Below, in pieces: positions 10,922 through 61,999 of a stretch of DNA of 64,000 bases. Each line of letters begins with the position of its first letter. Position 1 is the first letter of the stretch. Source of the DNA: a virus (taxonomy: Duplodnaviria; Heunggongvirae; Uroviricota; Caudoviricetes); the IMG/VR virus record IMGVR_UViG_3300031555_004779; one strand, written 5' to 3'. Below the pieces are notes generated by a model that saw only the letters and a program-made list of their open reading frames with translations, made no database searches and was not told where the DNA came from. Made by a program: the position numbers and the translations under genes.

Positions 10922-10929
10922 ATCAGTAA

Positions 10930-26075: not shown

Positions 26076-26172
26076 TTTTCTTTTGAATTTGTTGTTGACT
26101 TCTTCCCAATATGTGATATAATAAGATTGTCCAAAGGGACAAGAAATAAAAAACAGAAAGAGGTTATCAACT

Positions 26173-26598: not shown

Positions 26599-26623
26599 TG
26601 CCCAATTCCTTTTTATAGTAAAA

Positions 26624-26642
26624 CTATATGTTAAACATATAG
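26624..26642. promoter_or_regulatory. IPR19 palindrome (copy 14)
   Basis: CTATATGTTAAACATATAG. Confidence 0.6.
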
Positions 26643-26727
26643 AAATAAAGGTTGACTCTATATTTAAAAGGTGATATAATAAAGACGTTCCAAAGGGGAC
26701 AAAGAATAAAAGAAAGAAGGTTATCCC

Positions 26728-27321: not shown

Positions 27322-27337
27322 TCCTCCCCTTATAAAA

Positions 27338-27356
27338 CTATATGTTAAACATATAG
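27338..27356. promoter_or_regulatory. IPR19 palindrome (copy 15)
   Basis: CTATATGTTAAACATATAG. Confidence 0.6.
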
Positions 27357-27422
27357 AATCTTTTCTTGACTTCTTAACAATTTTCTGATACAATATAACC
27401 ATCAACAAAGGAGGTTGAACCC

Positions 27423-27554
27423 ATGAACCGTTACGAAGTCTTTGAACACATCACTAACAAACACATCTGCGTACTGCTTGCCACCAACTATGCCGAAGCA
27501 TGGAGTATCGCAGAATCTCACGGATGGTATCCCAATAATTATTATATTGTGTAA
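27423..27554 (+). CDS. small protein (43 aa)
   Basis: RBS AAAGGAGGT. Confidence 0.4.
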   Translation: MNRYEVFEHITNKHICVLLATNYAEAWSIAESHGWYPNNYYIV

Positions 27555-30981: not shown

Positions 30982-31410
30982 ATGGCACCTAATGGAATCG
31001 TTCGTCGCATTGATGATCTCGGTCGTATCACTATCCCCAAGGAAATTCGTCGCAACATGGGACTGAATGACGGTGATGCGTTGGAAATTAACTACAATAA
31101 CAATGGCGTTATTTCCATTCGCAAGTACAAGAAGTCTTTCGAGCAGTGTGCGATTGACTGGTACAACAAGGCTATCAATGTCCACGATAACAGCAGCCTT
31201 GATTTTCACTATTTCCGTCATACTGACTTTTGGTATCGCGGCGATTATACTTTTTGTGTAGTCGGCCATACCATTCCCAATTTCGTTCAGCGTGGAGGTT
31301 ACGCCAAGCGTTTTGAAGAGGATATCTTTGATGAACGCATTGGCAAGGTTGCCGCCTATGCTCGTGCCATGGGTCGCAAACTCAACAAGATGATTGGGTA
31401 CGAGGGCTAA
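30982..31410 (+). CDS. AbrB/SpoVT-family (swapped-hairpin) DNA-binding regulator with a C-terminal domain of unknown function
   Basis: N-terminus MAPNGIVRRIDDLGRITIPKEIRRNMGLNDGDALEI closely matches the AbrB/SpoVT N-domain (VRKVDELGRVVIPIELRRTLGI..DALEI). Confidence 0.75.
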   Translation: MAPNGIVRRIDDLGRITIPKEIRRNMGLNDGDALEINYNNNGVISIRKYKKSFEQCAIDWYNKAINVHDNSSLDFHYFRHTDFWYRGDYTFCVVGHTIPNFVQRGGYAKRFEEDIFDERIGKVAAYARAMGRKLNKMIGYEG

Positions 31411-31427
31411 TGCCCTCCCCAACTTAA

Positions 31428-31446
31428 CTATATGTTTAACATATAG
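31428..31446. promoter_or_regulatory. IPR19 palindrome (copy 21)
   Basis: CTATATGTTTAACATATAG. Confidence 0.6.
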
Positions 31447-31529
31447 AAACAACTATTGACTTCATAAAATAACAATGATATAATATTATCGTTCCCAAGA
31501 GAGAGGAACAGAAAGGAAGGTATCCCCAA

Positions 31530-32525
31530 ATGTTCGCAGTCGTTATTGGTATTCTCCTCATCATCGCCGCTATTGCTATTCCCTTTATTACTAATGGTAT
31601 GGGCTATAAGGGTGGCGGTATTGGCTCTGTTATCTGTCTGATTCTCGCCGCGGTTATCATTACCCTGTCCTGTATCTCCACCGTTCCCACTGGCCACACT
31701 GGTATTCTCACTACGTTCGGCCGTGTTGAGGACAAGAATCTTCCCGAAGGTATGAACTTCCATGCTCCGTGGCAGAGTATTACTACCATGACCAATAAGG
31801 AACAGACCAGCACCGAAACCAATATGTGTTTCTCCGCTGACTTGCAGGAAGTTGCCTATACTTACACTACGAAGCATAGTCTGCTTGCTTCTGCCGCGCC
31901 TAACATTTATAAGACCGTAGGTACTGACTATTACAATATCCTCATTGTGCCGCAGGTCAACAACGCCATCAAGGCAGAGTTTGGTTTGGTTGAAGCAGAA
32001 AATATGACTGAACTGCGTACCCAGCTTCAGAAGAACATCAATGACAAGGTACAGACTTTTGCTGATAAGTATGGTATCAACGTTACCGTTGTAATTGATG
32101 ACTTTGACTTCTCCGATGCTTATACCAATGCCATTGAAGCCAAGCAGGTAGCCGAACAGGAAGCCCTGCGCGATAAGACCCAGCAGCAGATGGAAACCGA
32201 GCGCGCTCGTCAGCAGGCAGAACGCACGAAGATTCAGGCCGAAAACGATGCCGCTATTCGTGAAATCAATGCCAACGCCGATGCGGAAGCCGCGCGAATT
32301 AAGGCACAGGCCGATTTTGAAGTCGCCCAGCTTGAAGCCGATGCCATTGCTTACAAGGGCGAAAAGGAAGCCGAAGCAACTGCCGCTCTTGCCGCCGCTA
32401 TTACCGATGAAGTTGTCGCGTATGAATATGCGCAGAACTGGTCTGGTGAACTTCCCCAGTATATGATGGGCGGTACTGGCGCTCTGCCTATCATTGATAT
32501 TCCCATGAATACGGAAGAGGAGTAA
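31530..32525 (+). CDS. SPFH/band-7 (stomatin/HflC-like) membrane protein
   Basis: Two N-terminal transmembrane segments. SPFH core start TGHTGILTTFGRVED..PEGMNFHAPW. Long AEAxA coiled-coil tail. Confidence 0.6.
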   Translation: MFAVVIGILLIIAAIAIPFITNGMGYKGGGIGSVICLILAAVIITLSCISTVPTGHTGILTTFGRVEDKNLPEGMNFHAPWQSITTMTNKEQTSTETNMCFSADLQEVAYTYTTKHSLLASAAPNIYKTVGTDYYNILIVPQVNNAIKAEFGLVEAENMTELRTQLQKNINDKVQTFADKYGINVTVVIDDFDFSDAYTNAIEAKQVAEQEALRDKTQQQMETERARQQAERTKIQAENDAAIREINANADAEAARIKAQADFEVAQLEADAIAYKGEKEAEATAALAAAITDEVVAYEYAQNWSGELPQYMMGGTGALPIIDIPMNTEEE

Positions 32526-32549
32526 TCCTCTTCCTTTTTTAATTTCATT

Positions 32550-32568
32550 CTATATGTTAAACATATAG
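32550..32568. promoter_or_regulatory. IPR19 palindrome (copy 22)
   Basis: CTATATGTTAAACATATAG. Confidence 0.6.
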
Positions 32569-32664
32569 TTTTATTTCAAAATAAGTATTTACAAATCCCA
32601 AAACCTATGATATACTTATATCGTTCCTAAGGGGAACGGAAATAAAAGAAAGAAGGTAAAACAC

Positions 32665-42564: not shown

Positions 42565-42792
42565 ATGGCACGTTTAATTGAACTAGAAAACCAAAAACAA
42601 TGCGCCTCTTGGGGCTATCAAGGTGAAAGTGGCGCAACAATTTTAATCGCTTCTATAAGCGAATTTGCAGCCCAGTATCCAACTGGAAAACCCAATGTAA
42701 TTTTCCAACGTCATGATGGTCATCCTTATATGCACAAATTTATTCTTTCAGGGGAAAATCTCCTTATAGAATTAAATTCTACTGATACTTAG
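42565..42792 (+). CDS. hypothetical small protein
   Basis: ORF track entry. Confidence 0.35.
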   Translation: MARLIELENQKQCASWGYQGESGATILIASISEFAAQYPTGKPNVIFQRHDGHPYMHKFILSGENLLIELNSTDT

Positions 42793-42846
42793 CAATGGGG
42801 AAAGTGCGAAGTTCAAATTAGCTGGCTCGTCAGCGGTAACAAAGTA

Positions 42847-43263
42847 ATGAAGAAGAAAATTTATTCTTCCTACATTTTGCCTGGCGATCTTGAAGGTGAC
42901 CTTCCACTTACAGACGAAAGTATTTTAGCTTTGGATAATTTGGAAGCTTATGTAGAAGAAGCAAAATTGCTATTAAATGAAGCAAAACAATACGCCGCTG
43001 AACTGGTATTTGTTGAAGCATTACCCGAAGTTGGTGATAACACTAAACTTTATATTGACAAAGCAACTTCTTCTATGTATTATTGGAGTGGCGATGCCTT
43101 TATGCTTCTCAATCCTTCTTATGAATGCGATTGTGACGATAAAAAGCCTAGTCCGCCACCACCACCTCCACGTCCACCACACATTCCTTGTCCGCCAATA
43201 ACAGGCGATGGACAAGAGATTCTTTATGGTGGCAATGCTTTCTTTCCACAAGCAGAAGACTAA
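42847..43263 (+). CDS. protein with a proline-rich segment (PSPPPPPRPPHIPCPP)
   Basis: ORF track entry. Confidence 0.4.
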   Translation: MKKKIYSSYILPGDLEGDLPLTDESILALDNLEAYVEEAKLLLNEAKQYAAELVFVEALPEVGDNTKLYIDKATSSMYYWSGDAFMLLNPSYECDCDDKKPSPPPPPPRPPHIPCPPITGDGQEILYGGNAFFPQAED

Positions 43264-43307: not shown

Positions 43308-44756
43308 ATGGCGACAGTTTTAAGCACTAAAATCATTCTTCGTAATGATACTGCGGCTAGTTGGTTAGAACACAATCCAATTCTATCTGCCGGCGAATTT
43401 GGTATTGAATGGGATACTGGTTTATTTAAAATCGGTAACGGTACAACCACCTATAACAAATTACCATATGCCGGCGCTCCTAGTGCAAGCGGTTCTGCTA
43501 TTCTAGATGCTGATGGATATACCTTAAGCGCGAATCTAGAACGCAAACTTGGCTTAAACAAATGGGGCATAGAATACCACAAATGGGTTGGCGACCACTA
43601 TGAGCTTGTTCCCGTTGATGCGAACAATCCATGGAAAATCAACTTACAACCAAAAGTCGCGCAAAACCCAACCACTGGTACCTTAGAGCTTGCTTGGTTT
43701 GAACCTTCCCCAATTTCTGCGGAAGACATTTCTGGCGCAGTTTCCGATTTACAAGAAACTGTTAATACTCTAAGTACTACTGTTGGTACAAAGGAAGATG
43801 CCGCAGGAACTGATAGTGTTTTTGGCGCAATAGCAACGCTAGACCAAAAACATAACGAACTTGCCGCGATTTCACTTCCTCTCACCGGCGGCCAAATGAC
43901 AGGTGAACTTCTACTTGCAGACGGTTCTCCTGCAGTTTCTGAGAAAACTGTAGATGATAAGATTACCTATGCTGTCGTAAACATGGGCACACTAAAACGC
44001 AAAGTAGTTACTGTTCTTCCTGATGTGGCTGATGCTGATGAGAACACAATTTATATGATAAAGAAGGGAACTTCTTTATTAAGCAATAGTTACGATGAAT
44101 ATTTCTTAATTGAAGGTACATTTGAATTAATTGGCGATACGTCTGCCGATTTGGAAGATTATATCAAAAAGCCATTAACATTCACCGAAGGAAATATTGC
44201 TTTATTTAGTAATGATGGTTCAATTAAAGATGCCGGCATTACTGCTAAAGATATATCAGAACATATTGCTGACAATGTTCTTCACATTACTGCCGAAGAA
44301 CGTGCTCGTTGGAACTCTGGAACTGGTTCTGGCGAAGCTCCAATTTATATTTTCGGTTCTGGCTTACAAGCTGACAATACTGGCGCAGTAACTTTAAAAG
44401 TTGCTGAAGAAAGTAATGGTATTACCGTTAGTGATGACGGTATTGCTCTTGCTCTTGCAACCAATGAATCCGCTGGCGCGATGTCCGCTGCACAATATTC
44501 TAAAATTTCTAATATGAAAGATATTTAGGGTGTTGTTCTTGGTGATATTGTTGAAGCAGCTTTCGACCCAAAGAATCGTGTACATATTCCAATGGCAAAT
44601 TCTGTAAGTCCTGGTGTTGTAGTTTCCTCTAGTGCTACCAACTCTATTGCAGTTGATATGCTTTCTGGTACCATGACCGTAAATACAATTGAAACAAGTA
44701 AACTTGTAGTTCCTGAAGGACAAGAGCTAATCTTAAATGGTGGCTCTGCTTCTTAA
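43308..44756 (+). CDS. tail fibre protein 1. The conserved N-terminal anchor domain is shared with five other genes. One in-frame TAG at 44526.
   Basis: RBS AGGTG. N-terminus IILRNDTAASW..P.L..GE.G.E.DTG..KIGNGTT.YN.LPY. The frame continues past the TAG to TAA at 44754. Confidence 0.55.
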
Positions 44757-44783: not shown

Positions 44784-46535
44784 ATGGCTGATAATCATAC
44801 CCTAAATACTCGCATTAAACTTAAATATGACAGTTATGAAAACTGGATTGCAAAGGACCCTGTCCTACTAGCTGGCGAAGTTGCCATTGCTACCGTTGCT
44901 TCTAATGATGCTGAAGGCAAGCCTGGCTTTCAAAACCTACCCAACATTGTATTCAAGGTTGGTGACGGAAGCAGCAAATACAGCGCCCTAAAGTTCGTAT
45001 CTGCTCTAGCTGCTGACGTACACAGCTGGGCTAAGGCTGCTGATAAGCCTGTTTACACCGCCGCTGAAATTGATGGAATCAAGGCTTATATTGATGGCGT
45101 AATTGGCGATCACAGTGAAATTCAAGATACTGATACCAAGTATATCATGGAAACTGTAGATGGCAACACCTATAAGTACGGTCTATATTCTACCAACAAG
45201 GCTGGCGAAAACAAGACTCTAGTATATACTCTAGACCTAAGTGGTGTAGACGGACGTCTAGATGATCTAGAAGCCGCTGTTGGTGAATCTGGTAAAGTTT
45301 CTCAACAGATTGCTGCTGCTATTGAAGCTATCGCAGTTGCCGAAACCAACCTTGGCACCACTGAAATGTATTCTGGTTACAAGCAGGTTGGCGGTATTGT
45401 AACTCTAAACAAGCGTACTCTAGGTATTGCTAACGTAGATGGCCTACAGACCGCTCTAGACGCTAAGCAGGACAACTTAGTCTTCGAGACTGCTTATGAT
45501 GCTGCTACCAATAAGGTTGCCACTATGGCTAACGTTACTGGTGCTATCGACGCTCTAGATAAGGCCGATGCCGCTGTTGAAAAACAGTTTGTAACCGCCG
45601 TATCTGAAGAAAATGGTATCATCACTGTAAGTCGTGCTGCTCTAAAGGCTTCTGATATTCCTAATATCACTCAGAGCCAGGTAGACGGCCTAGAAGATGC
45701 CTTAGATGCTAAGCAGGATAACCTAGTAATTGCCGACAATTACAATGCCGAAAGCAATAAGGTTGCTACCGAAGCTACCGTAACTAAGGCTGTTGCTGAC
45801 TTAAATGGTGCTATGCACTTTGAAGGCGTTGCGCCTAAGGATCCCACTACCTTCACCAACAAAGAAAATGATGTTTATAGTGGTGGCGACGTCTTACTAT
45901 TCGGTTATGACGAATATGTATATGATGGAAATACTTGGCACAAGCTAGGCAACGAATCCATTTATAAGCTAAAGAGCGAAGCTGCTACCGAGCACGAAGC
46001 TATGCAAGGTGAAATTGATGCTCTAGAAGCTAATAAGCAGGATAACCTTGGCTTTGAAGGTACCTACAACAAGGACACCAACAAGGTTGTAACCAAGTCT
46101 GCAATGACTGATGCCATCACCTCTGCTGTTGACGCCCTAGATAAGGCTGATACTGCCGTTGAGCATCAGTTCGTAACTAGCGTAAGCGAAGAAAATGGTG
46201 TTATTACTGTTCTACGCGCTCAGCCTGCTATCGCTGACGTAAATGGTCTAACCGAACGTCTAAGCGGTATTGACAGCGAGATTGCTAAGAAGCAAGATAT
46301 TGTTGGTTTTGCCGATGATTACAATAAGGACACCAATAAGGCTGCGACCGTAGCAACCGTAACCAATGCTATCAATGCTCTAGACAAAGCTGATGCTGCT
46401 GTTGAAGGACAGTTCGTTACTGCTGTACCTCAGGAAAATGGTATTGTAACCGTTTCTCGTGCTGCTGTAACCACTGACCACATCCAGCAAGGCACCAAGC
46501 CTTTCATTCTTGATTGTGGCACTGCCACTCTTTAA
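44784..46535 (+). CDS. tail fibre protein 2 (coiled-coil and repeat rich). CTA is the main Leu codon.
   Basis: N-terminus IKLKYDSYENW..P.L.AGE......KVGDGSSKY. A hairpin terminator (46547-46578) follows. Confidence 0.55.
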   Translation: MADNHTLNTRIKLKYDSYENWIAKDPVLLAGEVAIATVASNDAEGKPGFQNLPNIVFKVGDGSSKYSALKFVSALAADVHSWAKAADKPVYTAAEIDGIKAYIDGVIGDHSEIQDTDTKYIMETVDGNTYKYGLYSTNKAGENKTLVYTLDLSGVDGRLDDLEAAVGESGKVSQQIAAAIEAIAVAETNLGTTEMYSGYKQVGGIVTLNKRTLGIANVDGLQTALDAKQDNLVFETAYDAATNKVATMANVTGAIDALDKADAAVEKQFVTAVSEENGIITVSRAALKASDIPNITQSQVDGLEDALDAKQDNLVIADNYNAESNKVATEATVTKAVADLNGAMHFEGVAPKDPTTFTNKENDVYSGGDVLLFGYDEYVYDGNTWHKLGNESIYKLKSEAATEHEAMQGEIDALEANKQDNLGFEGTYNKDTNKVVTKSAMTDAITSAVDALDKADTAVEHQFVTSVSEENGVITVLRAQPAIADVNGLTERLSGIDSEIAKKQDIVGFADDYNKDTNKAATVATVTNAINALDKADAAVEGQFVTAVPQENGIVTVSRAAVTTDHIQQGTKPFILDCGTATL

Positions 46536-46609
46536 TTAAATAATATGCCGACCGACTGATGTCGGTCGGCATTTTTTTCATATATAATTCTATTAAAAGG
46601 AGAATGCAC

Positions 46610-49600
46610 ATGAGTAGAAAATTAATCACCAAGATTATTCTACGCAACGATGTAACTCAAAATTGGTTACTCGTTGCCGATACCATGGTACTCCTACGCG
46701 GTGAAATTGGTTTAGAATATACTGATACTGGCGTAAAAATGAAAATAGGTGACGGCATCTCTACATGGGGACAGCTTCCTTATTTTGTTTCTGGCGCTGG
46801 CACAGCCGAACTACCTGAGAATTTTACTTGGGCTGATTTACTAGGTGTAGCCGCTGAAGGAGAAACAACCTCCACTACAAATATTGGTTTAGTAAAACCC
46901 GCTTTAGCAGATAAAGTTGATGTTAATATTTTAAATGCTAATGCTGAAATTATTGATACTAATATTTTTGACCTAACTGAAAAAATTGGTTCTTTAACTA
47001 CACTTGTTGAAGAAAATGTCAATCAAATTCGTGCTACTTTAGCTGATTATGAAGGACGCATTGCGGCTCTAGAAAACAATAGTCCTGAAATTGATTCTGC
47101 TGAATTAGAAGCATTAAAAACTTCTGTTGCAGAATTAACTGAACGTGTTGTAATTCTTGAAAATCGCCAACCTACTGAAGGTGGTACTGTTGATTTCACT
47201 GAAATCAATAATGCGATTGCAGCCTTAGACAAGCGCATTGTAGCTATAGAAGAATCTTTTGTTAAAAAAGAAGAACTAACTTCTGTAAAAGATGAATTTA
47301 ATAAAACTCTTGAAAATTATACTACCAGAGAAGATTTAAGTTCTGTAAAAGAAATTGTTTACGGAAATACCGAGTGTATTACTGAAGTTGAAAATTTCGC
47401 TAAAAAGTTAGAAGAACAAGCCGGCCGTGTTAATGTATAGCTAAATGAAATGACAGAAAAAGACCTTTCTCTTGAACGTCGTATTACCACTCTTGAAGAA
47501 AATGGCGTTCCAGGTGATGGCGGTTCTGCCGAAGTAAGTCCTGAAACTCTTGCTCAAATTGAAGCTAATACTGCTAATATTGCTACTCTAACTGAAACTG
47601 TTGGTGGATTTGACGAACGTATTACTACTGCAGAAGAAAATGCCGCGACCGCTTTAACCTTTGATGAGCGCATTACCGCTGCTGAAACTACTGTCGCTGG
47701 TTATGATACTAAAGTTAATGCTGCCGTAGAAGCTACTCAAGCTATTACTGGTATGCAAACTACCATTAATGAAACAACCGCTCGTATGGAAGCAGTTGAA
47801 ACAGAAATGGAAGCTACCAACACTAATGTAGAAGCTATGGGTACTCGTGTTGAAGCAGCAGCTTCTGTCGTAGAAGAATTTGATGGCCGCGTAACTACCA
47901 CCGAAGCTCGTTTAGAAGAATTAATTGAAGCTTCTTCTAATGGCGAACTTGACGGTGTAGCCGAAGTAGTTGATGCTCGCGTAGCAACTGATGGTACCAC
48001 CTATGAAAACTTAGGTTCTCACGTTCGTGCTTTAGGTGATGAAATCGCTTATGTAAAGAACAATACCGCTGATTTAGTTGGTGGAAAACTTGTTGATGGT
48101 CTTTCTTATGAAGGATATATGCTACAATTAACTGCCGGCGGTAATCCTGTTGGTAACGCTGTAGAAATCAAGGGTGGTTCTGGTACTGGTACTGGTGGAG
48201 CAGGCACTTATACTGCCACTTTAACTAACCTACTAGATAGCCGTATGATTTCTGTTCCTAAAGGCGAATCTGTTGTACTAAAGTACAAGTATACTTCTGT
48301 TGATAACGAAGGGACTGACGATGGCGATGGCATCGGTGCAATTTCTGTTGAAAACGTTATCAAAGCTCGCTTCCCTGTAGCCCAAGGTGAAGTTGAAACA
48401 GATATTACTAATTACTTAGTAAATGGTACCAACACTGTTAAATTAACTGTTGAAAACTCTGAAGGTACGGTAAAGACTATTATTTATACCGTTACTGTTA
48501 TTGCTTTGACTTTAACCACTCCCTTTGCTGAAATGAATACTTATTCTGGCGATGTGGGATTCCAATATACAATTACTGGTAATGGTGCTAAAGTAATTCA
48601 TTTCATTTTAGATGACGATTATGAAGTTGGCACTGAAACTATCACTGCTGTAAATGCTACTCGTACTTTCACTATTCCAAAGCAAACTGATGGTGCTCAT
48701 ATTTTCAGTGTTTATGCCGAAACTGAAGCTGAAGGTACTATCATTCGTTCTGACGAATTACGTCTCGGTATGATGTGGACCTCTAGTGAAATGACTGAAA
48801 AAGCAGTTCTAGTTAATTATAACGGCGGTGAAAAGCAATAGGGTGAAATTATTCAGATTCCTTATTTAATATATGATCCATTCTCTCAAAATGCTGATGT
48901 ATTCTTTAGCATTTATAATGAAGATGGTTCTTTATATTATGAATCTGAGTCTAGTATTGTAGACCAGACTGCTAAGATTTGGTCAGTACAAGATTTCCCT
49001 GAAGGAAACACTGTTTTCCGTGTAACTGCTGGTAATAAAGAAGATACCGCGGAAACTAATGTATATGAAGAAGTTGTTATTAAGATTAATCCTTCTTCTT
49101 TCACTAATACTATAATTGATGATAACCTCCTACTAGACTTCAACGCTCGCAATAAGACTAATTATGTTGAAAACCCGGGCCACTGGGAATACAATGGTAT
49201 TGTTGCTGAATTTGACAACTTCAACTGGGCAGAAGCCGATGGTTGGGTAACCGACAAAGATGGCGCAAGCGTACTACGCTTCCTACCTGGCGGCAAGATG
49301 GTTATTCCTTTCAAGCCTTTTGAAAGTGATATTCGTAACTCCGGTTACACCATTGAAGCAGAGTTTGCAACCAATAATGTTCGTGACTATGATAGCGTTG
49401 TAATTGACACTTACAGTGGCGGTCGTGGTTTGATTATTCGTTCTCAGAACGCAGCTCTAAACTCTGAACAGTCTGGTGTAGGTGTACAGTTCAAAGAAGA
49501 CGCACGTATTCGTTTGACTTTCGTAGTCGAACAGAACACTCTAAATCGTTTTGTATATGTTTATATTGATGGTATCCTTTGCGGCATCACTCAATATTCA

Positions 49601-52600
49601 CTAACTGACAACTTCAAACAGACCGACCCAGTTGATATCACTATTGGCGCTGAAACTTGTGGTCTTGACCTATATAATCTACGTTTCTATGGCCGCGCTT
49701 TTTCTATTGATGAACAACTCAACAACTTCATGTGCGACCGTTCTACTCTAGAAGAGCGTATTGCTGTTCGCGACCGCAATGCTATTACTGATGATGCTGG
49801 TAAGATTACTGTAGACAAGATTAGTCTTTCTATCCCCTACATGATTATGGAATGTCCCGAACTTCCTCAATTTAAGGGTGATAAGAAAAAGAAGATGTCT
49901 GTAAAATATGTTGATGGATTACATCCCGATTATAGTTTCGAGGCAACTGGATGCGAATTTGACGTACAGGGTACTTCTTCTGCTGGTTATCCCGTAAAGA
50001 ACTTTAAAGTAAAATTAAAGAGTGGATTAACCTATACTGCTTCTGGCGAATATGCTGACGGTTGGTTATTTGATAAAGAAAACTCTCTACCCACTGAAGT
50101 ATTCTGCTTAAAAGCTGACTACGCTTCTTCTGAACACGCTAATAACGTAATGTTAGTTGACTATTATGATAAGGTAAGCCCATATCGTATGCCTCCTCAG
50201 CAGATTGATGACCGTGTTCGCAGTGGCGTAAATGGTAAGGCTATTATTGTTTTCTGGCACAATACCGATACTGGTGAAGTAACCTTCTAGGGTTGCTATA
50301 ACATGAATGATGATAAGTCTAATGAACAGACCTTTGGTTTCGTAGATATTGATGTTACTTCTTTAATTCCTGAACCTCGCATTGAATGCTGGGAATGGTG
50401 TAACAACAATAATGACCTAGTTCTTTTCCTTGATGACGCCGCATTTGACCAAACTAAGGTTGATGAAGACGGTAAGCCCTATCCCGCTTGGCAGGATGAC
50501 TTTGAACCTCGTTTCCCAGACTTAGATGACCATATGTATGGCGAACAAGAGGGCGAACTTGATAAACTACGTCGTATGGTTAGTTGGGTAGTTTCCACTA
50601 ACCAAAAAACAGCAACCAATAATATTATTGCTCCAGTAACCTTACCTCATTATTTAACTGGTGTACCAACTGAATATGCAGTTGATTCTGCTGAATATAG
50701 ATTAGCGAAGTTCAAGTCCGAATTTGAAGATTACTTTGAAATGGATGCAATGACTTTCTACTATATCTTCACCGAAGTATTCCTCATGGTTGATAACCGT
50801 GCTAAGAACATGTTCTTAACCACTTTTGATGGCGATCATTGGTTCCCAATTCCTTACGATATGGATACTGCGATTGGTATTAACAATGAAGGTGCTCTTG
50901 CCTTTGAATATCACCTTGAAGATACTGACTATGTAGATGACGAGAAAGTATACAATGGTCAGGATAGCGTACTATGGATTAATTTCCGTATGTGCTTCCC
51001 CTCTGAAATCCGCACTATGTATCAAGAACTTCGTTCTAACAATGAGAATCCTTTCTCTTACTAGGCTATTTACGAAAAGATGAAGAAACACCAAGAAACT
51101 TGGCCTGAAGTTGCTTGGAACTGGGATGCTCAGTTTAAGTATCTTGAGCCTTTCCATCTTGGTTCTAACAACCTTGCCATGCTACAAGGTAACAAAGCTT
51201 CTCAGCGAGATTGGTGGCTATATAATGCCTTTAAGTATCGCGATAGTAAATATCAGGCTGGTGAGTCTTTAACCAATTATATTCACCTTCGTTTATATGA
51301 AGCCGGTGAAATCAATATCGTTCCTTATTCTCACTTATACACTCGTGTTAAGTTTGGTCAAGCCAAAGACGAGACTCAAAGAACATTCCGTGACCAAACC
51401 GCTTGCTTCACTACTGAAGGTATTGCTGACTTAAATGACCTTGAAACACACATTTATTCTGCTGACCGTCTAGTAGACATCGGCGACTTAAGTGCTTTAA
51501 AGATTGGTTATTGTGACGTTTCTCCTGCTATTAAACTTGGCCGACTAATCCTCGGTAGTGAAGCAGATGGATATACCAATCCCAACTTAAAGACCTTAAA
51601 CATTGGTCGTAATGAATTACTACAAGAGATTAATGTAAGTAACTGTACTGGTCTTGGTACTCCCGATAAAACTGGTGCTATTCCTACCGCCGTTATTGAC
51701 GCTAGCAAGTGCCCCAGCCTTGAAGTACTAAAGGCAAAGGGAACTTCTGTACTCGGTGCTAACTTTACTGATGGTGGCCGTCTACGTGAAGTATATCTAC
51801 CTGGTACTGTAACTTCCATTACTCTACGTAATCAGCATAACCTAGAAACCTTTGAACTAGAAAGCTACGCTAATATTTCTACCATCTTAATTGACAATAC
51901 CGCTAATATGCCTATTGAAGAAATGGTAGCAAATGCCGGCAAACTTGACCGTGTTCGTATTACTAATTAGTCTTGGAATGCCACTGATGAAGCTTCTCTA
52001 TTGGCTACTGTCCGTAAGTTAGCTGCTTGTGACGGTTTAAGTGCTGATGGTTCTACTACATTAGAAAATCAGCCTATCGTAACTGGTCGCGCGCATGTAG
52101 CTTCTATTAGTGAAGCAGCTCTTGAAGAAATCAATACTCTATTCCCAGAACTAATTGTTGTTGTAAATGGAGTACCAAAACTCTTTATGCGCTATCTAAA
52201 CTACGACAATACTCTACTCTATCGTTATGTAATTAACGCTGGTGAAGATGCTATTGATCCAATTGCGAAGGGTTATATCAGTGCTCCCGATCGCGCGGAT
52301 ACTGAAACTGCAGAATATACCTTTATTGGTTGGTCTGAACTACCCACTAACGTACAGAAAGCTTATAACATTGTTGCTAAGTATGATGGACGTTTCCGCG
52401 TAGATTTTACTAATCTTGAGGGTGAAGTTATTAATTCTCAATGGATTCTTGATGGCGAAGATGCGGTAGAACCCGTTTCTAGTGGCTTGGTAAATGCTCC
52501 TGTTAAAGAAAGTACAGCACAATATGATTACGAATTTGCTGGTTGGGATCGTAGCTTTATTAAAGTTGAAGAGCCTTTGGTTCTAAAACCTCTATTCAAC

Positions 52601-53533
52601 CCAATTCTTCGTAGTTATAAAGTATTCTTCTATAATGATTCTACATTAATTGAAGAACACACTATCTTCTATGGTAGTACTGCTACTTTCACTGGAGATA
52701 CTACTAAAATTAAGAAAATCATTGGCGGAGAAGAAAGTATTTATTATGAATTCACTGGTTGGTCACCAAGTCCTGATAAACCAATTATTAGTAATACTTG
52801 GTATTATGCTGAATTCTCATTTAATGGCTATATTACTGATAGTTGGGAAACTATCGCTGCTGCCGCTAAAGCCGGGGATGTAAGTGCTTATGGCTTAGGC
52901 GGACGTAAGATTTTAGAATATAGTGTTAACGGAGTAAGTTATTCCAAAATTGAACTTGAAATTGTAGGAAAAAATCATGATATTCTTGCAAAAGAAGATA
53001 GTTCCTATAACGGTGGTTCAGGAAAAGCCGCTTTAACATTTATTGCAAAATTAATAGGTGATGAAGCCCGTATTATGAACCAAACTCAGCATTCTATCGG
53101 TGCTAATAGCTCTCTAAATACTGGCGGCTGGGCAGTTTCTGATATGCGTCTATGGATGCAGAATACTCTTTGGGTAGCAATGCCCGCTGAATTACAAGCC
53201 GCTATCAAACCAGTCATTAAAAAAAGCGATAATGGTTTCTTCGTTTCTACTATTCGTGAAACTGAAGACACATTATGGTTGCCTTCTGATCGTGAACTTA
53301 ACTGCGAAAATACTGGCTTGGTTCTCGCTGGACAGGGCGAACCGTATCCTGTTTATACTGACGCAGCTAGTCGCAAGAAATAGAATAAGGGCGGTGGCTT
53401 AAAACTATATTGGACTCGTTCTACTGGTCGTGAAGGATAGCATTATTATCGTTACATTGATAGCCAAGGTAACGGTGGTAATCTAGGCGCGGCTTCTCAA
53501 AACCTTGGTGTAGCCTTTGGCTTCTGTATCTAA
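46610..53533 (+). CDS. giant tail fibre/tail spike protein (about 2307 codons). The frame is continuous only if at least eight TAG codons are read as sense.
   Basis: Track ORFs 46559-47440, 47450-48841, 49298-50290, 50303-51064, 51080-51970 and 52001-53383 are all in one frame, each joined by a single TAG. The 48842-49297 stretch is open with no ATG. The terminal stop is TAA at 53531. The start was set at ATG 46610 after AAAGGAGAATGCAC. The N-terminus carries the shared anchor motif. Confidence 0.55.
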
Positions 53534-53547: not shown

Positions 53548-53907
53548 ATGTTCTATAAAGTAATGTTTAACAACATGGTCGTTGACCTCCTTACCGAGGC
53601 ACGCTGGGTTCGTTATCTTCCTAATTCCAAACGCTTGGTTGCCACTGATAGCCAAGCGGCTAATGGAATTATGGGCAGCGACCATGATACTGTATATCAT
53701 TTGTTTGGCAAGCCTTATACTTTTGATAAAGAAGTAAAAACTGTTGAGGTAATTAAGATTGACGGTGTAGAATATGAAAAACTACGTGGCCAATTTATGT
53801 TACAGCAACAGGAAAATGAAAGCATGAAGAAAGAAATTTGCTCTTTAAAAGAGCAATTAAATTCTCAAGAAGCTTTGTTACAAGCTATTTTAGCTAAACT
53901 ATCTTAA
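53548..53907 (+). CDS. possible tail fibre assembly or chaperone protein (C-terminal coiled coil)
   Basis: RBS AAGGAGGAAAACT. Positioned directly after the fibre gene. Confidence 0.35.
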   Translation: MFYKVMFNNMVVDLLTEARWVRYLPNSKRLVATDSQAANGIMGSDHDTVYHLFGKPYTFDKEVKTVEVIKIDGVEYEKLRGQFMLQQQENESMKKEICSLKEQLNSQEALLQAILAKLS

Positions 53908-54049
53908 TAAATAGGGGAGAATTTTCTCCCCTATTTTTTTTGATTGTTAAGAATAAAATGCTTTAATGAATTGTTTTTTTTAACACATTATAAATGAGAG
54001 TAATCTCTTTTAAAAATTCCTTCTTATTTATAACATGGAGGTTAAACAT

Positions 54050-56869
54050 ATGGCATAGAAAGTTCTTAAAACTCGTATAAAACAAAGAATAGATACTGCC
54101 GAAAACTGGGCTCAAATTGCTGAAGCTCCATTAGAAGGCGAAATTATTATTTATAAATCAACAGACGATACAATCCCTGATAAAATAAAAATTGGCGATG
54201 GCGCGACTACCGCTTCTAATTTACCTTTTATTACCGATGTTGATACTAATAATCTTTCCGCCGGCGTTCGCATTCCAGAGAGCGACACTAATTCTCTCGG
54301 CTCTGTTACTCAGGGTATTTATTGGGAAAATGGTCGTCCTCAATTAATGTCTTACACTTTAGGTAAGAGTGTTCCTTCCAACGCAGTATTTACTGATACA
54401 AACACCAAAGTTACTTCTGCCGCTAATCACTATGCACCACAGACAGATAGTGCTTCTGCTTTAAATGTTGATGCTTCTAGTACAACTGCGGCAACTTGGG
54501 GTTCTACTAGTTTGGTTACTGGTGTTAATCTAACTCGTGATGCTAAAGGACACGTAACTGGCATGACAGTTGATTCAATTAAGATGCCATCCGACCCAAC
54601 TTATACTTTACCTACAGCAACTTATAATACTCTTGGTGGTGTAAAACCTGCTTACACTTCAACTGGTTCTGCTACGCTAACTACTGCCGCTGCAACGAAT
54701 ACTACTACTCCTACCATTCAAAAGAAATCTACTACTTCATCTCGTTATTATGGCGTAGAAGCAGACGTAAATGGTATTTTATTTGTTAACGTTCCTTGGA
54801 CTGGTGATATTACTGGTGTAACTGCTGGCGATGGTTTAACCGGTGGCGGTTCTTCTGGTTCCGTAACGCTAAAAGTTGGCGCTGGCGCTGGTATTACTGT
54901 TAGTGCTGACGCAGTTGGACATACTAACAGTGTAACTGCGGATACCGCTTCCGAGGGTGGCTCTGCTCGTACTTTGGCTCATGGTGGTACTTTTAATATC
55001 CCAAGTGTTACTTATGATACTGAAGGTCATATCACAGCAAAAGGTTCTACCACCTTAACTCTACCAAGTCTTCCCAACGCAGGTACAAGTGCGGGCGTTG
55101 TAAAGTCTGGTGGCGTAGCTACTATTGCTGATGGTGTAATTACTGCTGTTAGCGGCGCTAGCAATGCAGATACCGCAGGCACTGCTAATAAAGTAGCTAA
55201 TTCTCTATCAATTCAAGGCAATGGAACTGGTATTACTTTTGATGGTTCTGCGGCTAAAACTGTAAATATTAAAGGTTCTGGCACCGTTTCTGTAACTGGC
55301 AATACCAGTGGTGTAATTACTATTACTGGCTCAGCCCATCCTACTGCTTTAAAGAACCCAAATGCGTTGACTATAGATGTAAATGGAACTTCTACTTCTT
55401 ACGACGGTTCTTCTACTAAGACTGTAACTATTAATGCCGCGGCTTTAGGTTTATCCAGTGCTATGCAATTTGGCGGCGTTGTAACTTCTTTACCAACATC
55501 AAGTACTGCTGGTACTGTTGTACTAATGGGTAATAAGGAATATGTATACGATACCAATGGAAATTGGGTTGAACTTGGTGACGAAGGAAGTCATGCTTTA
55601 AAAACAATTAAAGTTACTGCTAATGCTGGTTTGACTGGTGGTGGCACTCTTGCTTCTGATATGACTATTGGTCATGCTAATAGCATCACCGCGGGCACCG
55701 CGCAAGGTAGCAGTGGTACATTAAGTCATGGCGGAACATTTACTATTCCTAAGATTACTTATGATGCTTATGGTCATATTACTGGCGCGTCTACTACAAC
55801 TTATACATTACCTGCTGATAGCAATACTCACTATACTGCTAACTTATATTTAGGTGCTTCTGGCGCTTCTTCTAATGCTACTACCGCAGTAAGCAATCCT
55901 TACTTAGTATTACGTGAAAATAGCACTACAAGAAACAATATTCAATTAAAAGGTAGTTCTGGCATTTCTGTAAGTGGTGCAAGCGGAGTGGCAACTATTG
56001 GACATACCAACTCTGTTACCGCTGCTACCGCATAGGGTTCCGCAACTGGCACTTTAAGTTTTGGTGGAACATTTACAATTCCCACTATTACTTATGACGC
56101 TCAAGGACATATTACTGGTAAGGGCACTACAACTCTTACTATGCCAGCGAACCCCAATACCGATACTCACTGGACAGCCAACTTAATTACTGGCGCTTCT
56201 GCCACAGCGACCGCTAATGCGGCAGCATCTGATGGTAGCGTTTATTTGAACTTAATTGAAAATGGCAGTGTTCGCAATTCTCATCTCATTGATGGCGCGG
56301 GTACTGTTACTGTTACTAGTGATACAAATGGCAAAATTACTATTACTGGTTCTGCGCATCCAACAGTTAATAATGCCAAGATTACCCTTAGTGCTGGTAC
56401 TGGTCTAACTGGCGGCGGAGATTTTACTCTAAATCAATCTGGTGCAGAGACAATTTCCTTTGGACATAGTAATAGTGTTACTGCTGGCACAGCGCAAGGC
56501 GGTAGTGGCCAGTTAAGTCATGGTGGTACTTTTACTGTACCTACTATTACCTATGACGCACAAGGTCACATTACTGCTAAAGGTACTACTACTTATACCT
56601 TACCTACTGACAATAACACAGATACCAAAGTAACTCAGGCAGCGGCAATTGCTACTAATGGTAATTATCCTGTTCTACTTGCTTATAGTACATCTACATC
56701 TTCTGTAACTAATACTGTAAATAAGAGCACAACTTTGTTATATAATCCTTCTACTGGAACATTAAGTGCTACCAAGTTCAGTGGTAATGGTAATTCCTTA
56801 ACAGATATTAATGCAGTCCAATTAACTCTTGCTGATAGCGATGAATTGATTCTTGACTGTAATGATTAA
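54050..56869 (+). CDS. tail fibre protein 4 with four internal repeats of about 50 aa. TAG-recoded.
   Basis: RBS GGAGGT, then ATG at 54050. TAG at 54056 and at 56033. Repeat unit GH(T/A)NS(V/I)TAGTAQGSSGTLSHGGTF(T/N)IP.ITYDA.GHIT. A TAG in one repeat aligns with a CAA (Gln) codon in its sister repeats. Confidence 0.55.
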
Positions 56870-56948: not shown

Positions 56949-58478
56949 ATGGCGACAAATACGTTAAAAACACGTATTCAACATAAAAATGGTTCAGCTT
57001 CTGATTGGTCTTAGGCAACAACGTTCGTACCTCTAAAAGGCGAGCTTATTATATATAATGATGCTACTACACCAAAAATTAAGGTTGGTGACGGTGCAAC
57101 ACTAGTAGAAAATCTACCTTTTGTAGGTGCTTCTATTACAATGAATGGAGCAATAGCCTCCAGTCCAAGTTTTTACGCACCTACAACCGCTGGTACAGCG
57201 GGGCAGGTATTAAAATCTAATGGTTCTGGCGCTCCTACTTGGGCGGCAGAATACAGTTATACTTTACCAACCGCCACATCATCAGTTCTTGGCGGTGTAA
57301 AAGTAGGTTCTAATATTACAGTATCCAGCGGTACAATTAGTTTGACTAAAGCGAATGTTACCGCGGCATTAGGTTATACACCACCAACAAGTGATACAAA
57401 TACAACCTATTCTGCTGGCACTGGTATTAGTTTAAGTGGTACTACATTCTCAAATAGTGGTGTTCGTTCTATTTCTACTGGTTCAAGCAATGGTACAATT
57501 AGTGTAAATACTAATGGCACAAGTGCCAATGTTGCGGTAAAGGGATTGGGTAGCGCGGCGTATCTAGCTAGTACGGATTTGATTCATTCTGTATCTTTGG
57601 CTACAGACGGTACTCTTAGAGTAAATAATGGTAGTGGTACTTCTATTCTTTCTTTAGGTAATTATTATTTAAAGCTTTCTGGTGGTACAGTAACTGGGAA
57701 TATCAACATTCAAGGTACAAGTTATCCATCTTTTTGCTTGCAACCAACTACTGCTAACAGTGCTGGAACATATACTGGAGGCTTCTTTGAAGGAAGTTAT
57801 GTAGATAATGTAAGTATGTGGGTATGGACTGATAGAAATAATAGCGCTAAATCTCGTCGTGGTTTAGTTTTATATGGTTATGCTTAGTAGACAAATGATA
57901 ATTATGCTTTAGCCTTACGCAGATGTGATACCTCTGGTAATTGGCAGTCGGATTTAAATATACTTCATAGTGGTAATTTTTCTTCTTACGCTTTATCATT
58001 ATCTGGCGGCACAATTTCTGGTAATTTAACTGTTACAGGCACTATTACTGGCACAAAAGTCTACGGTGCCGTTTGGAATGACTATGCCGAATATCGCTCT
58101 CAAAACGAAACTATCGAACCTGGCTACATCACCTATTGTGATGACGATGGCAAATTGAAGAAAACTGCCAAACGTCTCCAAAAATACGAAGGCGTTGTGT
58201 CCGATACCTTTGGTTTCGCAATTGGTGAAACTGACGATTGCAAAACTCCTCTTGCAGTATCTGGTCGTGCTCTTGTTTACTGCGACCCAGAAGAACACTT
58301 CCACTCTGGTGATTGTGTATGTGCTGGACCAAATGGTTTGGCGTATCGTATGATGAGAGAAGAAATTATTGAATTCCCTGACCGTATTGTTGGTGTTGTT
58401 TCTGAGATTCCAACATATGAAACTTGGGGTACTGGAAATGTAAAAGTTGATGGTCGTATTTGGATAAAAATTAAATAA
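56949..58478 (+). CDS. tail fibre protein 5. TAG at 57010 and a tandem TAG-TAG at 57886-57891.
   Basis: The N-terminal anchor motif is present. The frame stays open through both TAGs into track ORF 58155-58478 and ends in TAA TAA. Confidence 0.5.
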
Positions 58479-58554: not shown

Positions 58555-59076
58555 ATGACTTAGAAAAAAATTTTTAGACCAAGAAGGTGTGCAATATCTT
58601 TGGTCTAAAGTGTCTTTGCAAGACTACCCTAATAATGATACTTTAATTGCAGTTTTAAATGCAATTGATGAAACTAAAGCTGATAAGGAAGAAATTCCTT
58701 CAAAAATAAGTCAATTAGAAAATGATTCTAATTTAATGACTCAAGAATAGGCTGATAGCCTAGCCACCAATTACGATGCTGCTGGTTCTGCTGCTCAGGC
58801 GCTAGTAGATGCCAAGGCTTATGCTGATGGTCTTGCTGGTAACTATGATGCTAAGGGTTCCGCCGCGCAGGCCCTAACCGATGCTAAGGCTTATAGTGAT
58901 GGCAATTTAGGTGTTGCTAAGACTTATAGTGATACTAACTTGGCTGCGGCGAAGACTTATAGTGATGGTAACCTAAATACTGCTAAAGCTTATACCGATA
59001 CTGAATTAGCCAAGGTAGTAGCACTATCTACTGAGGAAATTGACGCCGCAATCGCTGCTGCTACTCCTGCTAATTA
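58555..59076 (+). pseudogene. repeat protein (AKAYxDxNL repeats) with a frame break at an A7T5 homopolymer just after the start codon
   Basis: ATG 58555 follows AAGGAGGATAGTT. The long ORF lies in the +1 frame relative to the ATG, after AAAAAAATTTTT at 58564-58575. An in-frame TAG lies at 58747-58749. Confidence 0.3.
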
Positions 59077-59112
59077 ATCAGTTAGTTAATTTGGTTTCGG
59101 TGAGGGATGTTT

Positions 59113-59296
59113 ATGCAAGTTGTAAGACTTTGTTAGAGAAATGACATTGAAGCTAATTGGAAGATTAGTAATCCCGTACTATATATGGGAGAAATCGCAG
59201 TTAGTATTGACGTCAATAATCTCAAAATCGGTGATGGAAAAACCGCGTGGAAAGACTTGCCATATTATATGTAGTCTCTAACCGATGAAGAAATTT
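59113..59296 (+). CDS. stand-alone tail-fibre N-terminal anchor domain (about 60 aa) with two in-frame TAG codons
   Basis: Hand translation gives MQVVRLC*RNDIEANWKISNPVLYMGEIAVSIDVNNLKIGDGKTAWKDLPYYM*SLTDEEILALCK. A hairpin plus T-run terminator follows (59314-59345). Confidence 0.4.
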
Positions 59297-59401
59297 TGGC
59301 GTTATGTAAATAAAAGGGGTGATTATTCACCCCTTTATTTTATTATAAAAATTTGACAAAAAGAAAAAATTATTTTATACTTAAAAGAAAAGAGGTATAA
59401 A

Positions 59402-60487
59402 ATGAGAGTTTCTTGTAATGATTTAAAAAGACAAATAAATAAATATTCTTCTGAGTTAGAAGAAAAATTATCTAATGTATTTTATAGTGGCTCTTATATT
59501 CTTGGTTAGGAAGTCGCAGCTTTTGAAGAAGAATTTTCTTCTTATTTGGATATTAAACATTGTATAGGAGTGGCTAGCGGATTAGATTCTTTAATTCTAG
59601 CTTTTTAGCTTTTAGGAATTGGCGCTGGTGATGAAGTAGTTATGGCGGCGAATGTTTATACAGCTTGTGCTTTAGCTGCCATTAAAAATGGAGCGATTCC
59701 TGTATTAGTTGATTGCAATGAGTATTATAATATAGATGTTTCTCAAATTGAAAAAGTTATAACACCAAAAACAAAGGCTATTTTAGCCGTCCATTTATAT
59801 GGACAAAGTTGCGATATGGATGCTATAATGTCTATAGCAGAGAAATATAATTTATATGTTATTGAGGACTGCGCTCAAGCACATGGTGTGACTTTTAATG
59901 GGAAAAAAGTTGGTACTTTTGGTGATATTGGTTGTTTTAGTTTTTATCCAACTAAAAATCTTGGAGCTTTGGGAGACGGTGGTTGTCTAGTAACGAATAA
60001 TGATGCTATTGCTAAAAGGGGTCGTATTCTTCATAATTATGGCCAAAAAGAAAAAAATATTTTTGATGAAATTGGCATGAATAGTAGACTTGATGAAATT
60101 TAGGCTGGTTTACTAAGAATAAAATTAAAACATTTGGATGAAATGAATAAAGAACGAGAAGAAATTGCTAATTATTATTTACAAGAAATTCAAAATGATA
60201 ATATAAATTTGCCAAAAATACAACCAAAAAGTAGCTGTGTATGGCATCAATTTGTAATTAGTTCTAAAAGACGTGATGAATTAAAAGAATTTTTAAACGA
60301 AAAAAATATAGAAACTCTTATTCATTATCCGTTGCCTTTTTATTTAAACAAAGCTTATAGTTTTTTAAAATATAAATAGGGAGACTTTCCCAATGCAGAG
60401 AAAAAAGTATTGAGTTTACCGATGTTTATTGGTATTAATAAAAGTGAAAAAAAGAAAGTAGTGGAAACATTAAGGGAGTTTAATTAA
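59402..60487 (+). CDS. DegT/DnrJ/EryC1/StrS-family PLP-dependent sugar aminotransferase. TAG-recoded, with four in-frame TAG codons.
   Basis: RBS AAGAGGT. PLP-Lys motif [16 protein letters not shown]. The motif NSRLDEI(TAG)AGLLRIK aligns with the family-conserved NYRMxEIQAAxG, which places Gln at the TAG position. Confidence 0.75.
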
Positions 60488-61058: not shown

Positions 61059-61242
61059 GCTTTCTGAGAAGTGGGAAACAGCGGTATCTAATGGAGATAC
61101 TTTTACTCATCCGTATAATGGCAAGCCGTATATTAGACTTTCTATTGAATATGATGATATTAATAAGATTCGCAATGCTCTTCGTGTTGCGGAGAAGAAT
61201 CCGAAGGTGGGTGTGAAGATTGACAAAGGAATCACTTGGTAA
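60991..61242 (+). CDS. hypothetical small protein
   Basis: RBS AAGGAAGAGAAG. Confidence 0.35.
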   Translation: MPKPNPKYVPPASIPTTDVSTGKLSEKWETAVSNGDTFTHPYNGKPYIRLSIEYDDINKIRNALRVAEKNPKVGVKIDKGITW

Positions 61243-61999
61243 TCGTGTAATTGATTGTAAGAAATACGCAGACAATATTCTAAACTCCATTTCTGGTGAT
61301 GGCCGTCTTGCTATTATTAGTGTTGGAGAAAATGCCGCGTCAGAAGCATATATGCGCGGCAAGCAGAAAGATTGTGACCGCGTAGAATTTCATTGTTCTC
61401 GTCATCATTTTCCTAACGGCACACTACAGAGTGCGATTGTTGATACGATTAGCATTTTAAATGAAGATGAACGAGTAACTGGTATTATTATTCAGTTGCC
61501 TCTCCCCGAAGGATATGATGAAGAATATCTTACTAGTTTGGTCTATCCCGAAAAGGACGTGGATGGTTTTGTAGAAGGTAGCCACTTTCAGCCTTGTACG
61601 CCCGAAGGTGTAATTTACATTGCTGAGCAAGAAGTGGGCGACCTTACCGGTAAGAATGTTGTAATTATTGGACGAGGAAAACTTGTTGGTCGTCCGTTGG
61701 TACAGATGATGATTGATAAGAATGCTACTGTGTCTGTTTGTCATAGTAAAACTTCGGAGAATACAATAAAATATCTTACCGAAAAAGCGGACGTTATTGT
61801 TGTTGCTACTGGTACTCCAGAAAGATGGCTCTTTAATAATTCTAATGCTATCGTAATTGATTGTGGCATTAGTCGTAATGCTGAAGGAAAACTTGTTGGC
61901 GATGTAGCCTATACTCCTGGCCGTTGTACTCCCGTGCCCGGTGGTGTTGGACTTATGACGAGAGCAATACTGATGAAGCATGTAGAAAGGAAAAAGTAA
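61220..61999 (+). CDS. folD: bifunctional 5,10-methylene-tetrahydrofolate dehydrogenase / 5,10-methenyl-tetrahydrofolate cyclohydrolase
   Basis: Motifs GIIIQLPLP, IGRGKLVGRPL and TPVPGGVGLMT match FolD hallmarks. The start is probably TTG at 61220 after GGTGGGTG. Confidence 0.8.
   Translation: MTKESLGNRVIDCKKYADNILNSISGDGRLAIISVGENAASEAYMRGKQKDCDRVEFHCSRHHFPNGTLQSAIVDTISILNEDERVTGIIIQLPLPEGYDEEYLTSLVYPEKDVDGFVEGSHFQPCTPEGVIYIAEQEVGDLTGKNVVIIGRGKLVGRPLVQMMIDKNATVSVCHSKTSENTIKYLTEKADVIVVATGTPERWLFNNSNAIVIDCGISRNAEGKLVGDVAYTPGRCTPVPGGVGLMTRAILMKHVERKK

Follow-up and report, generated by a model that had tools for sequence, protein, structure and literature searches.

The window analysed here, a stretch of 64,000 nucleotides from the virus record IMGVR_UViG_3300031555_004779 (Caudoviricetes), carries on its plus strand, at 46610-53533, a reading frame that very probably constitutes a single tail-fibre gene in which the codon TAG is read as glutamine. 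The frame extends from an ATG at 46610 to a TAA at 53531-53533 and comprises 2,307 sense codons, seven of them TAG, with no internal TAA or TGA; the nearest in-frame stop upstream of the ATG is a TAA at 46541. Over the same 6.9-kb span, stops number 152 and 338 in the other two plus-strand frames and between 102 and 194 in the reverse frames, so that the absence of TAA and TGA over 2,307 codons, set against 102-338 stops elsewhere, places this open frame far beyond chance. Read with the standard code, the region breaks up into six open reading frames (ORFs; 46544-47440, 47441-48841, 48842-50290, 50291-51064, 51065-51970 and 51971-53383), which abut exactly, with one TAG at each junction. A preliminary description of the locus had proposed a single coding frame of about 6.9 kb, continuous only with TAG as a sense codon and built from six same-frame ORFs with single-TAG junctions, and our analysis bears out both points. 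A Shine-Dalgarno sequence, AAGGAG (46597-46602), lies 7 nucleotides upstream of ATG 46610, and similar GGAGG-like sites are found at other real genes of the window. Since the orthologues moreover all begin with MSRKLITK, this spacing and the shared N-terminus identify ATG 46610 as the true start.

Using the recoded translation, with glutamine in place of TAG, as the query, we retrieved full-length relatives with 87% (P0001, 2,303 residues), 79% (P0002, 2,268 residues) and 52% identity (P0006, 2,165 residues). Megablast found nothing similar to the gene among 50,697 phage records, and it thus has no close deposited relative. P0002 is encoded at locus L005, positions 7180-13986, by a 2,268-codon ORF that contains neither a TAG nor any internal stop under the standard table (table 11), demonstrating that elsewhere the gene is a single ORF without interruption.

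We then compared the seven TAGs codon by codon with the close orthologues, at loci L001, L003 and L005, and where indicated with the more distant L002. TAG codon 277 (47438-47440), in a coiled-coil region, lies opposite CAA in L001, and codon 744 (48839-48841) opposite CAG in L002, L003 and L005 and TAG in L001. Codon 1227 (50288-50290) is CAG in L003 and L005 and TAG in L001, while codons 1485 (51062-51064) and 1787 (51968-51970, at the end of a leucine-rich-repeat region) are CAG in L001, L003 and L005. In the C-terminal domain, codon 2258 (53381-53383) occupies a variable site, with CAA in L002 and TCT, GCG and TCC in the close orthologues, and codon 2277 (53438-53440) is CAA or CAG in all four orthologues. 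Altogether, 14 of the 17 non-TAG codons that the close orthologues align to window TAGs are CAA or CAG. The reciprocal comparison gave a similar picture: of the five orthologue TAGs that lie in real coding sequence and are not shared, four stand opposite a CAG of the window. At codon 744, the CAG of L002 comes from the 52%-identical relative, and a glutamine, read by eye, occupies the site both in P0006 and in P0012 (29% identity); as far as these alignments go, this position is a glutamine conserved in distant homologues. The number of TAGs varies from gene to gene, with seven in the window, five in L001, eleven in L002, none in L005 and three in L003, where the gene is split and one TAG falls in read-through intron sequence. 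No more than two positions coincide, in each case with the closest relative. Drifting positions together with exchange for CAA and CAG indicate that TAG acts as a synonymous glutamine codon, one transition away from CAG.

We also considered whether TAG could be decoded as a different amino acid, such as pyrrolysine, tyrosine, tryptophan or leucine. The decoding tRNA was not seen, one orthologue TAG stands opposite TTG in the window, and site 2258 lies opposite serine or alanine; UAG is, furthermore, read as pyrrolysine in some anaerobic Firmicutes, as is generally known. The predominance of CAA and CAG at the aligned sites, the glutamine at codon 744 in relatives as distant as P0012 and the single transition that turns TAG into CAG nevertheless make such a decoding extremely unlikely. 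Glutamine has also been found by proteomics on other gut phages (PMC9523058), and the tRNA-Sup(CTA) of relatives of the phage phAss-1 has been typed as a glutamine tRNA (PMC10607447).

The abutting ORFs could in principle represent six or seven separate genes, or the remains of a decaying pseudogene, with the TAGs as genuine stops and each segment either translated on its own or left untranslated. ORF callers set to the standard code do split the region into six ORFs, and in three segments an in-frame ATG follows the TAG by 4-6 codons. However, our search for Shine-Dalgarno-like sites before candidate starts after each TAG, including these ATGs, yielded none. The 456 nucleotides at 48842-49297, in which the preliminary description had seen no ATG, indeed have none, nor do they contain an in-frame GTG or TTG, leaving one segment without a start codon for 152 codons. 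The nonsense codons are all TAG, and there are no frameshifts. Nei-Gojobori ratios of nonsynonymous to synonymous substitution (dN/dS), calculated for each of the seven inter-TAG segments, the final 50 codons among them, range from 0.02 to 0.25 against L001 and from 0.02 to 0.41 against L005, indicating that selection maintains the protein encoded by every segment in this frame. Domains run across the junctions, and the essential genes for the large terminase subunit (TerL), the portal and the tape measure show the same TAG pattern. At the level of sequence, the separate-genes explanation is already contradicted by the uninterrupted orthologue, the codon alignment and the dN/dS values, and the likelihood we would still grant it, or a pseudogene, is practically nil.

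Some relatives do encode the protein in two pieces. In L003 and L004, for example, the orthologue is called as two ORFs of 1,408 and 858 residues, and at least seven homologue clusters (P0004, P0005, P0007-P0011) end at a single site, equivalent to 50878|50879 in the window. In L003, the two ORFs are separated by a 1,020-nt insertion (14132-15151) directly after the sequence PYDMDTAIG, within an invariant YDxD motif of the CotH-fold domain described below. This insertion, which also splits the gene in L004, includes an ORF for a GIY-YIG homing endonuclease and matches the core of group I introns at less than the gathering score (RF00028, 30.3 bits, E=2e-5). The window allele lacks it and is intron-less. 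Split relatives with a putative intron at this site lend side support to the unity of the gene.

The predicted product has the modular layout of a tail fibre. Residues 1-65 (46610-46804) form a putative Mtd_N-like N-terminal anchor motif, matched weakly by PF18454 (19.7 bits; cut-off 26.3) and by the 'tail' family phrog_19976 (E=1.8e-5). The motif recurs in the ORFs starting at 43308, 44784, 54035 and 56949 and in a 69-residue orphan ORF at 59104-59310, and the paralogue at 43308 matches many tail-fibre PHROGs with E values from 1e-9 to 1e-11. The earlier suggestion of a tail-fibre-type protein whose N-terminal motif is common to five other ORFs therefore stands, with the orphan counted as one of the five. 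Heptad-like sequence and weak matches to Pfam families of the coiled-coil type suggest a coiled-coil shaft at about residues 100-490 (46907-48079), and the sequence from about residue 520 to 870 appears to be β-rich. A conserved central module at residues 493-1517 (48086-51160) matches PHROG families of giant phage proteins, namely phrog_24896 over its whole length and across three TAGs (E=1.6e-73) and phrog_14959 over residues 516-1248 (E=2.3e-124). Within it lie a weakly matched LamG/ConA-like jelly-roll at residues 907-1032 (49328-49705; PF13385, E=0.0019, 18.8 bits, cut-off 27.6) and the beginning of a domain with the fold of CotH kinases at residues 1080-1660 (49847-51589). Further downstream, weak Pfam matches point to leucine-rich repeats (LRR) at about residues 1650-1800, and three repeats with a [YF]-x-F-x-G-W motif can be seen at about residues 1880-2090. 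β-helix, depolymerase and glycosidase domains, the first two of which the preliminary description had envisaged, gave no Pfam or PHROG match in sequence-level searches (E<=0.01 for the whole protein, E<=1 for eight segments); CotH-fold, LamG-like, LRR and DUF6273 modules were found instead. A search for diversity-generating retroelements (DGRs) and template repeats around the fibre genes revealed intragenic repeats in the neighbouring fibre genes only and nothing pointing to a DGR acting on this gene.

The C-terminal domain, DUF6273 (residues 2069-2307; 52814-53530), scores above the Pfam gathering cut-off (PF19789, residues 2164-2301, 38.2 and 43.5 bits; cut-off 23.5). Its AlphaFold2 model, built from the corresponding segment of P0192, reached a predicted local distance difference test score (pLDDT) of 93 and places four β-strands past codon 2258 and three past codon 2277; the best structural match is part of the IgA peptidase of Thomasclavelia ramosa (E=4e-5). 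In an alignment of 14 diverse homologues, conservation extends to the last residues, GFC[ITLM], with G219, G236 and F237 invariant past both TAGs. As the C-terminus is conserved to its last residue, the TAA at 53531 is the real end of the gene. Codon 1227 maps to a β-strand of the CotH-fold model (residue 148 in strand 145-155) and codon 1485 to a helix (residue 406 in helix 405-416), so that, going by the models, four of the seven TAGs (1227, 1485, 2258 and 2277) sit inside confidently modelled folds. The N-terminal motif would anchor the fibre to the tail beside five paralogous fibres and the coiled coil would form its shaft, while the distal LamG-like, CotH-fold, LRR, repeat and DUF6273 modules would contact the host surface.

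Recoding is not confined to the fibre gene. In the structural region on the minus strand, the portal gene (13884-15437) contains one TAG, TerL (15453-17222) six, corresponding to 29% of its glutamine codons, and an MCP-like gene (major capsid protein; 10930-11967) none. In the tape-measure ORF, which runs from 5481 down to 1 and off the left edge of the window (PF10145, 100 bits), 58 of 1,826 codons are TAG, corresponding to 46% of its glutamine codons as against 11% in the fibre gene; for an essential gene, this is an unusually heavy dependence on suppression. Such uneven loads might conceivably order the synthesis of late proteins by suppressor level, but as a graded timer this is not supported, because the loads follow no clear pattern (none in the MCP-like gene and one fibre, 11% in the fibre gene, 29% in TerL, 46% in the tape measure). 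The structural operon is headed by a gene with three TAGs (18171-19493, minus strand) for a 440-residue protein that matches a sigma-factor-like PHROG (E=1.1e-20) and resembles a zinc ribbon or HNH domain in its C-terminal region.

Between 20.5 and 39.5 kb, 19 plus-strand ORFs with 3,367 codons do not use TAG at all, neither as a sense codon nor as a stop, which differs significantly from the structural genes with their 107 TAGs among 460 glutamine codons (Fisher p=1.5e-10). This block has a higher GC content (0.43-0.45) and includes a cluster of tRNA genes for Met (30421), Leu-UAA (30640) and Lys (30795). Long spurious antisense ORFs within it, such as 26167-27450 and 31299-32570, mislead length-based gene calling. 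TerL is nearest to those of Geobacillus virus E3 (40% identity), Enterococcus phages and SPβ-like Bacillus phages, and shows 33% identity to that of the TAG-recoded gut phage phAss-1. The relatives sit on contigs of 131-146 kb. The window derives from a large siphovirus-like gut phage, probably with a Firmicutes host.

For the decoding of these genes, we propose that a suppressor tRNA-Gln(CUA), probably encoded by the phage outside the window, would read TAG efficiently during infection. The TAG-free genes at 20.5-39.5 kb could then be translated by the unmodified host, while the structural genes, including the fibre gene, would give full-length protein only with suppression active, and the full-length fibre would be the main product. 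The preliminary description had left room for a different arrangement, several products that depend on programmed termination, with the efficiency of suppression setting their mix. In such a case, deliberately partial suppression at programmed TAG positions would yield a functional ladder of truncated products (276, 743, 1226 residues and so on) beside some full-length protein. TAG is a stop in the presumed host, and truncated products must therefore occur before the suppressor appears or while its level is low; as the first TAG, codon 277, lies in the coiled coil behind the anchor, an anchor-only product of 276 residues is also physically plausible. Yet the TAG positions are not conserved, with five, eleven and none in orthologues and two shared with the window, and TAG swaps with CAA and CAG. 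Truncation at the four TAGs in modelled domains would leave misfolded ends, and neither a recoding signal nor a common context was apparent, the bases following the TAGs being c, g, g, g, t, a and c. Moreover, the tape measure demands near-complete decoding: even for a yield of 10%, its 58 TAGs arithmetically require at least 96% decoding per codon, a rate at which at least 76% of the fibre would be full-length, making programmed termination in the fibre unlikely. We thus consider a regulated product mix very improbable, and do not follow the preliminary description on this point; minor truncated by-products of the fibre may nonetheless arise.

Several observations weigh against the reading of the locus as one recoded late gene. 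TAG 2258 aligns with serine or alanine in the close orthologues and, as a variable site, says nothing for glutamine. The assignment of gene blocks to early and late phases is inferred from gene content, and the contigs of relatives suggest a genome of roughly 130-146 kb, of which the window covers less than half. Most directly, ARAGORN and Rfam searches detected no suppressor tRNA(CUA) in the window, where only tRNA-Met, tRNA-Leu(UAA) and tRNA-Lys were found, and no tRNA-Sup was detected at loci L001-L005 or at L009-L011, where the 10 kb beyond the equivalent of the right window edge were covered; L011 returned a single doubtful tRNA-Ile(tat) call inside a gene. Attempts to extend the sequence past the right edge by exact protein matching led only to contigs shorter than 5 kb, and a scan of IMG/VR was likewise negative. 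With no suppressor tRNA in the window or the relatives' loci, the decoding agent is one that we infer. Some recoded phages do lack a suppressor tRNA (PMC10607447). About 9 kb past the equivalent of the right window edge, L009 encodes a Thg1-like protein (tRNA-His guanylyltransferase family; 19528-20319), which might bear on tRNA-based recoding. Considering all of this, we estimate the probability at about 0.9 that 46610-53533 is one gene for a 2,307-residue tail fibre or adhesin, from a large tailed phage that expresses its late genes in code 15 (TAG = glutamine) and whose host is most likely a member of the Firmicutes.

The CotH-fold domain came to light through its predicted structure. Used as a single-sequence query or as a profile, the CotH-like segment found nothing among the sequences of the PDB, and only the comparison of folds led to CotH. 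The AlphaFold2 model (pLDDT 88, predicted template modelling score 0.89) matched two entries for Bacillus cereus CotH, 5jd9 and 5jda (E=1.5e-10, probability 1.0, target-normalized TM score 0.64), the sole Foldseek matches in the PDB at E<0.001. The Pfam family PF08757 scored 23.1 bits with the segment and 20.6 bits with the whole protein, just below its gathering cut-off of 23.8. For a deep search, we used the segment of P0002, which is in standard code and about 93% identical, in place of the recoded window sequence, and found the module in 2,961 clusters at E<=1e-3 among 1.84 billion representatives; most of the best 150 of these clusters are proteins of 1,500-2,900 residues. Many homologues carry PF08757 on record, and some are named 'CotH kinase family protein' by NCBI. 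Two motifs are invariant in 16 homologues, D1395-x3-K-N1400 and Y-D1417-x-D1419. The catalytic residues of Bacillus subtilis CotH are D228 and D251, 23 residues apart (PMC7821199), and the invariant D-x4-N, followed 22-24 residues on by D-x-D, resembles this pair in its spacing, which is what the comparison addresses. It is conceivable, if rather doubtful, that the modelled module is an active virion-borne enzyme, a kinase or related phosphotransferase, that would modify a component of the host surface during adsorption; if so, this would be a receptor-modifying activity, unlike known depolymerase tailspikes. It has been pointed out that the CotH domains of phage genomes are unstudied (PMC8008677), and a widespread module of this kind at the business end of a phage fibre offers a lead on a new phage-host surface interaction.

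The fibre gene is part of a plus-strand cluster at 43.3-58.5 kb of five fibre genes with the Mtd_N-like motif. The other four are located at 43308-44756 (one TAG), 44784-46535 (no TAG), 54035-56869 (two TAGs) and 56949-58478 (three TAGs). The orphan ORF (plus strand) consists of the anchor motif only and matches a model built from the other five, and thus not trained on the orphan itself, with E=1.9e-13. Lying shortly before a gene for a sugar aminotransferase, it possibly represents what is left of a sixth fibre gene. Directly downstream of the fibre gene, at 53548-53907 (plus strand), a gene for 119 residues follows a GGAGG that precedes its ATG. Its product, a candidate fibre chaperone, has no family match, and an ORF of 119 residues also follows the orthologue in L003, L004, L005 and L011. 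Immediately upstream of the fibre cluster, 42565-43263 (plus strand) encodes a 232-residue protein with the proline-rich stretch PSPPPPPPRPPHIPCPP and no PHROG match. To the right of the cluster, an ORF at 58736-59077 includes at 58883-59010 (plus strand) three overlapping 62-nt copies with 33-nt spacing, equivalent to about four tandem 33-nt units (11 residues, AKxYSDxNL-like). Two auxiliary metabolic genes adjoin the fibre cluster on the plus strand, one for the DegT/DnrJ/EryC1 sugar aminotransferase (59402-60487, E=1.7e-109, four in-frame TAGs) and one for a FolD-like methylene-tetrahydrofolate dehydrogenase/cyclohydrolase (61220-61999, no TAG).

Recoding of TAG to glutamine in phages is already known, and on the sequence evidence presented here the seven internal TAGs of the fibre gene are ordinary sense codons, not gene boundaries. 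Under standard-code annotation, the fibre falls apart into six or seven spurious genes, and TerL, the portal and the tape measure fare no better; the host-recognition machinery of such a phage becomes visible only with the right code. Orthologues with none, five, seven and eleven TAGs in one gene of 2,300 codons provide an unusually clean natural control, in which TAG drifts as a synonymous glutamine codon. The CotH-fold module, the intron in relatives and the extreme share of TAG in the tape measure are of secondary interest.

In gut phages, the reading of TAG as glutamine has been established by comparative genomics and metaproteomics (bioRxiv 10.1101/2021.08.26.457843, Borges et al.; PMC9523058, Peters et al.), and for code-15 phages a pattern has been described, which the window matches, in which the host uses the standard code, the genes that open the infection are free of TAG and the late genes are recoded (bioRxiv 10.1101/2021.08.26.457843). 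The window shares with these phages (crAss-like, Lak and others) the presence of TAG in structural and late genes, the glutamine opposite it in homologues, a TAG-free gene block and a presumed host on the standard code. It differs from them in that its 64 kb show neither a suppressor tRNA nor a gene for a release factor and that TAG accounts for up to 46% of glutamine codons in one gene. Unlike in crAss-like phages, its TerL is nearest to those of large Bacillota siphoviruses, adding a non-crAss lineage, probably infecting Firmicutes, to the code-15 phages. A distantly related recoded phage is phAss-1, of the proposed 'Phassvirus' group (OQ749652, PMC10607447), a 136-kb siphovirus-like gut phage whose TerL, portal, tape-measure and tail-fibre ORFs are interrupted by TAG, as they are here, and in whose group recoding patterns likewise vary among close relatives. 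The fibres described for it, however, have about 1,070 residues and pectate-lyase domains, in contrast to the 2,307-residue CotH-fold protein described here.

Known counterparts of the central part of the fibre occur in standard-code phages. Its central CotH-fold module is shared with a 1,673-residue protein of NatCom_3357 (XTK82179, 44% identity), with gp353 of Bacillus phage G (2,055 residues, 27% identity) and with p00 of the Bacteroides 'Hankyphage' (25% identity), all annotated as 'hypothetical' and different from the window fibre in their N- and C-terminal modules. The NatCom_3357 gene lies after those for the tape measure, Dit and one further protein and before holin and endolysin, which is a tail-fibre position. 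The Bacillus CotH kinase (PDB 5JD9/5JDA; PF08757) has the same fold as the fibre domain at about 10% identity; there it belongs to a spore-coat kinase, while here the modelled fold would be embedded in a predicted 2,307-residue fibre. Finally, as in programmed readthrough, known from the A1 protein of Qβ and from retroviral gag-pol, the longer product depends on the decoding of a stop codon. In those systems, however, two functional products arise in a fixed proportion from one leaky stop that is conserved, whereas the fibre gene has seven non-conserved TAGs, a codon that serves for glutamine in the ordinary way across the genome.

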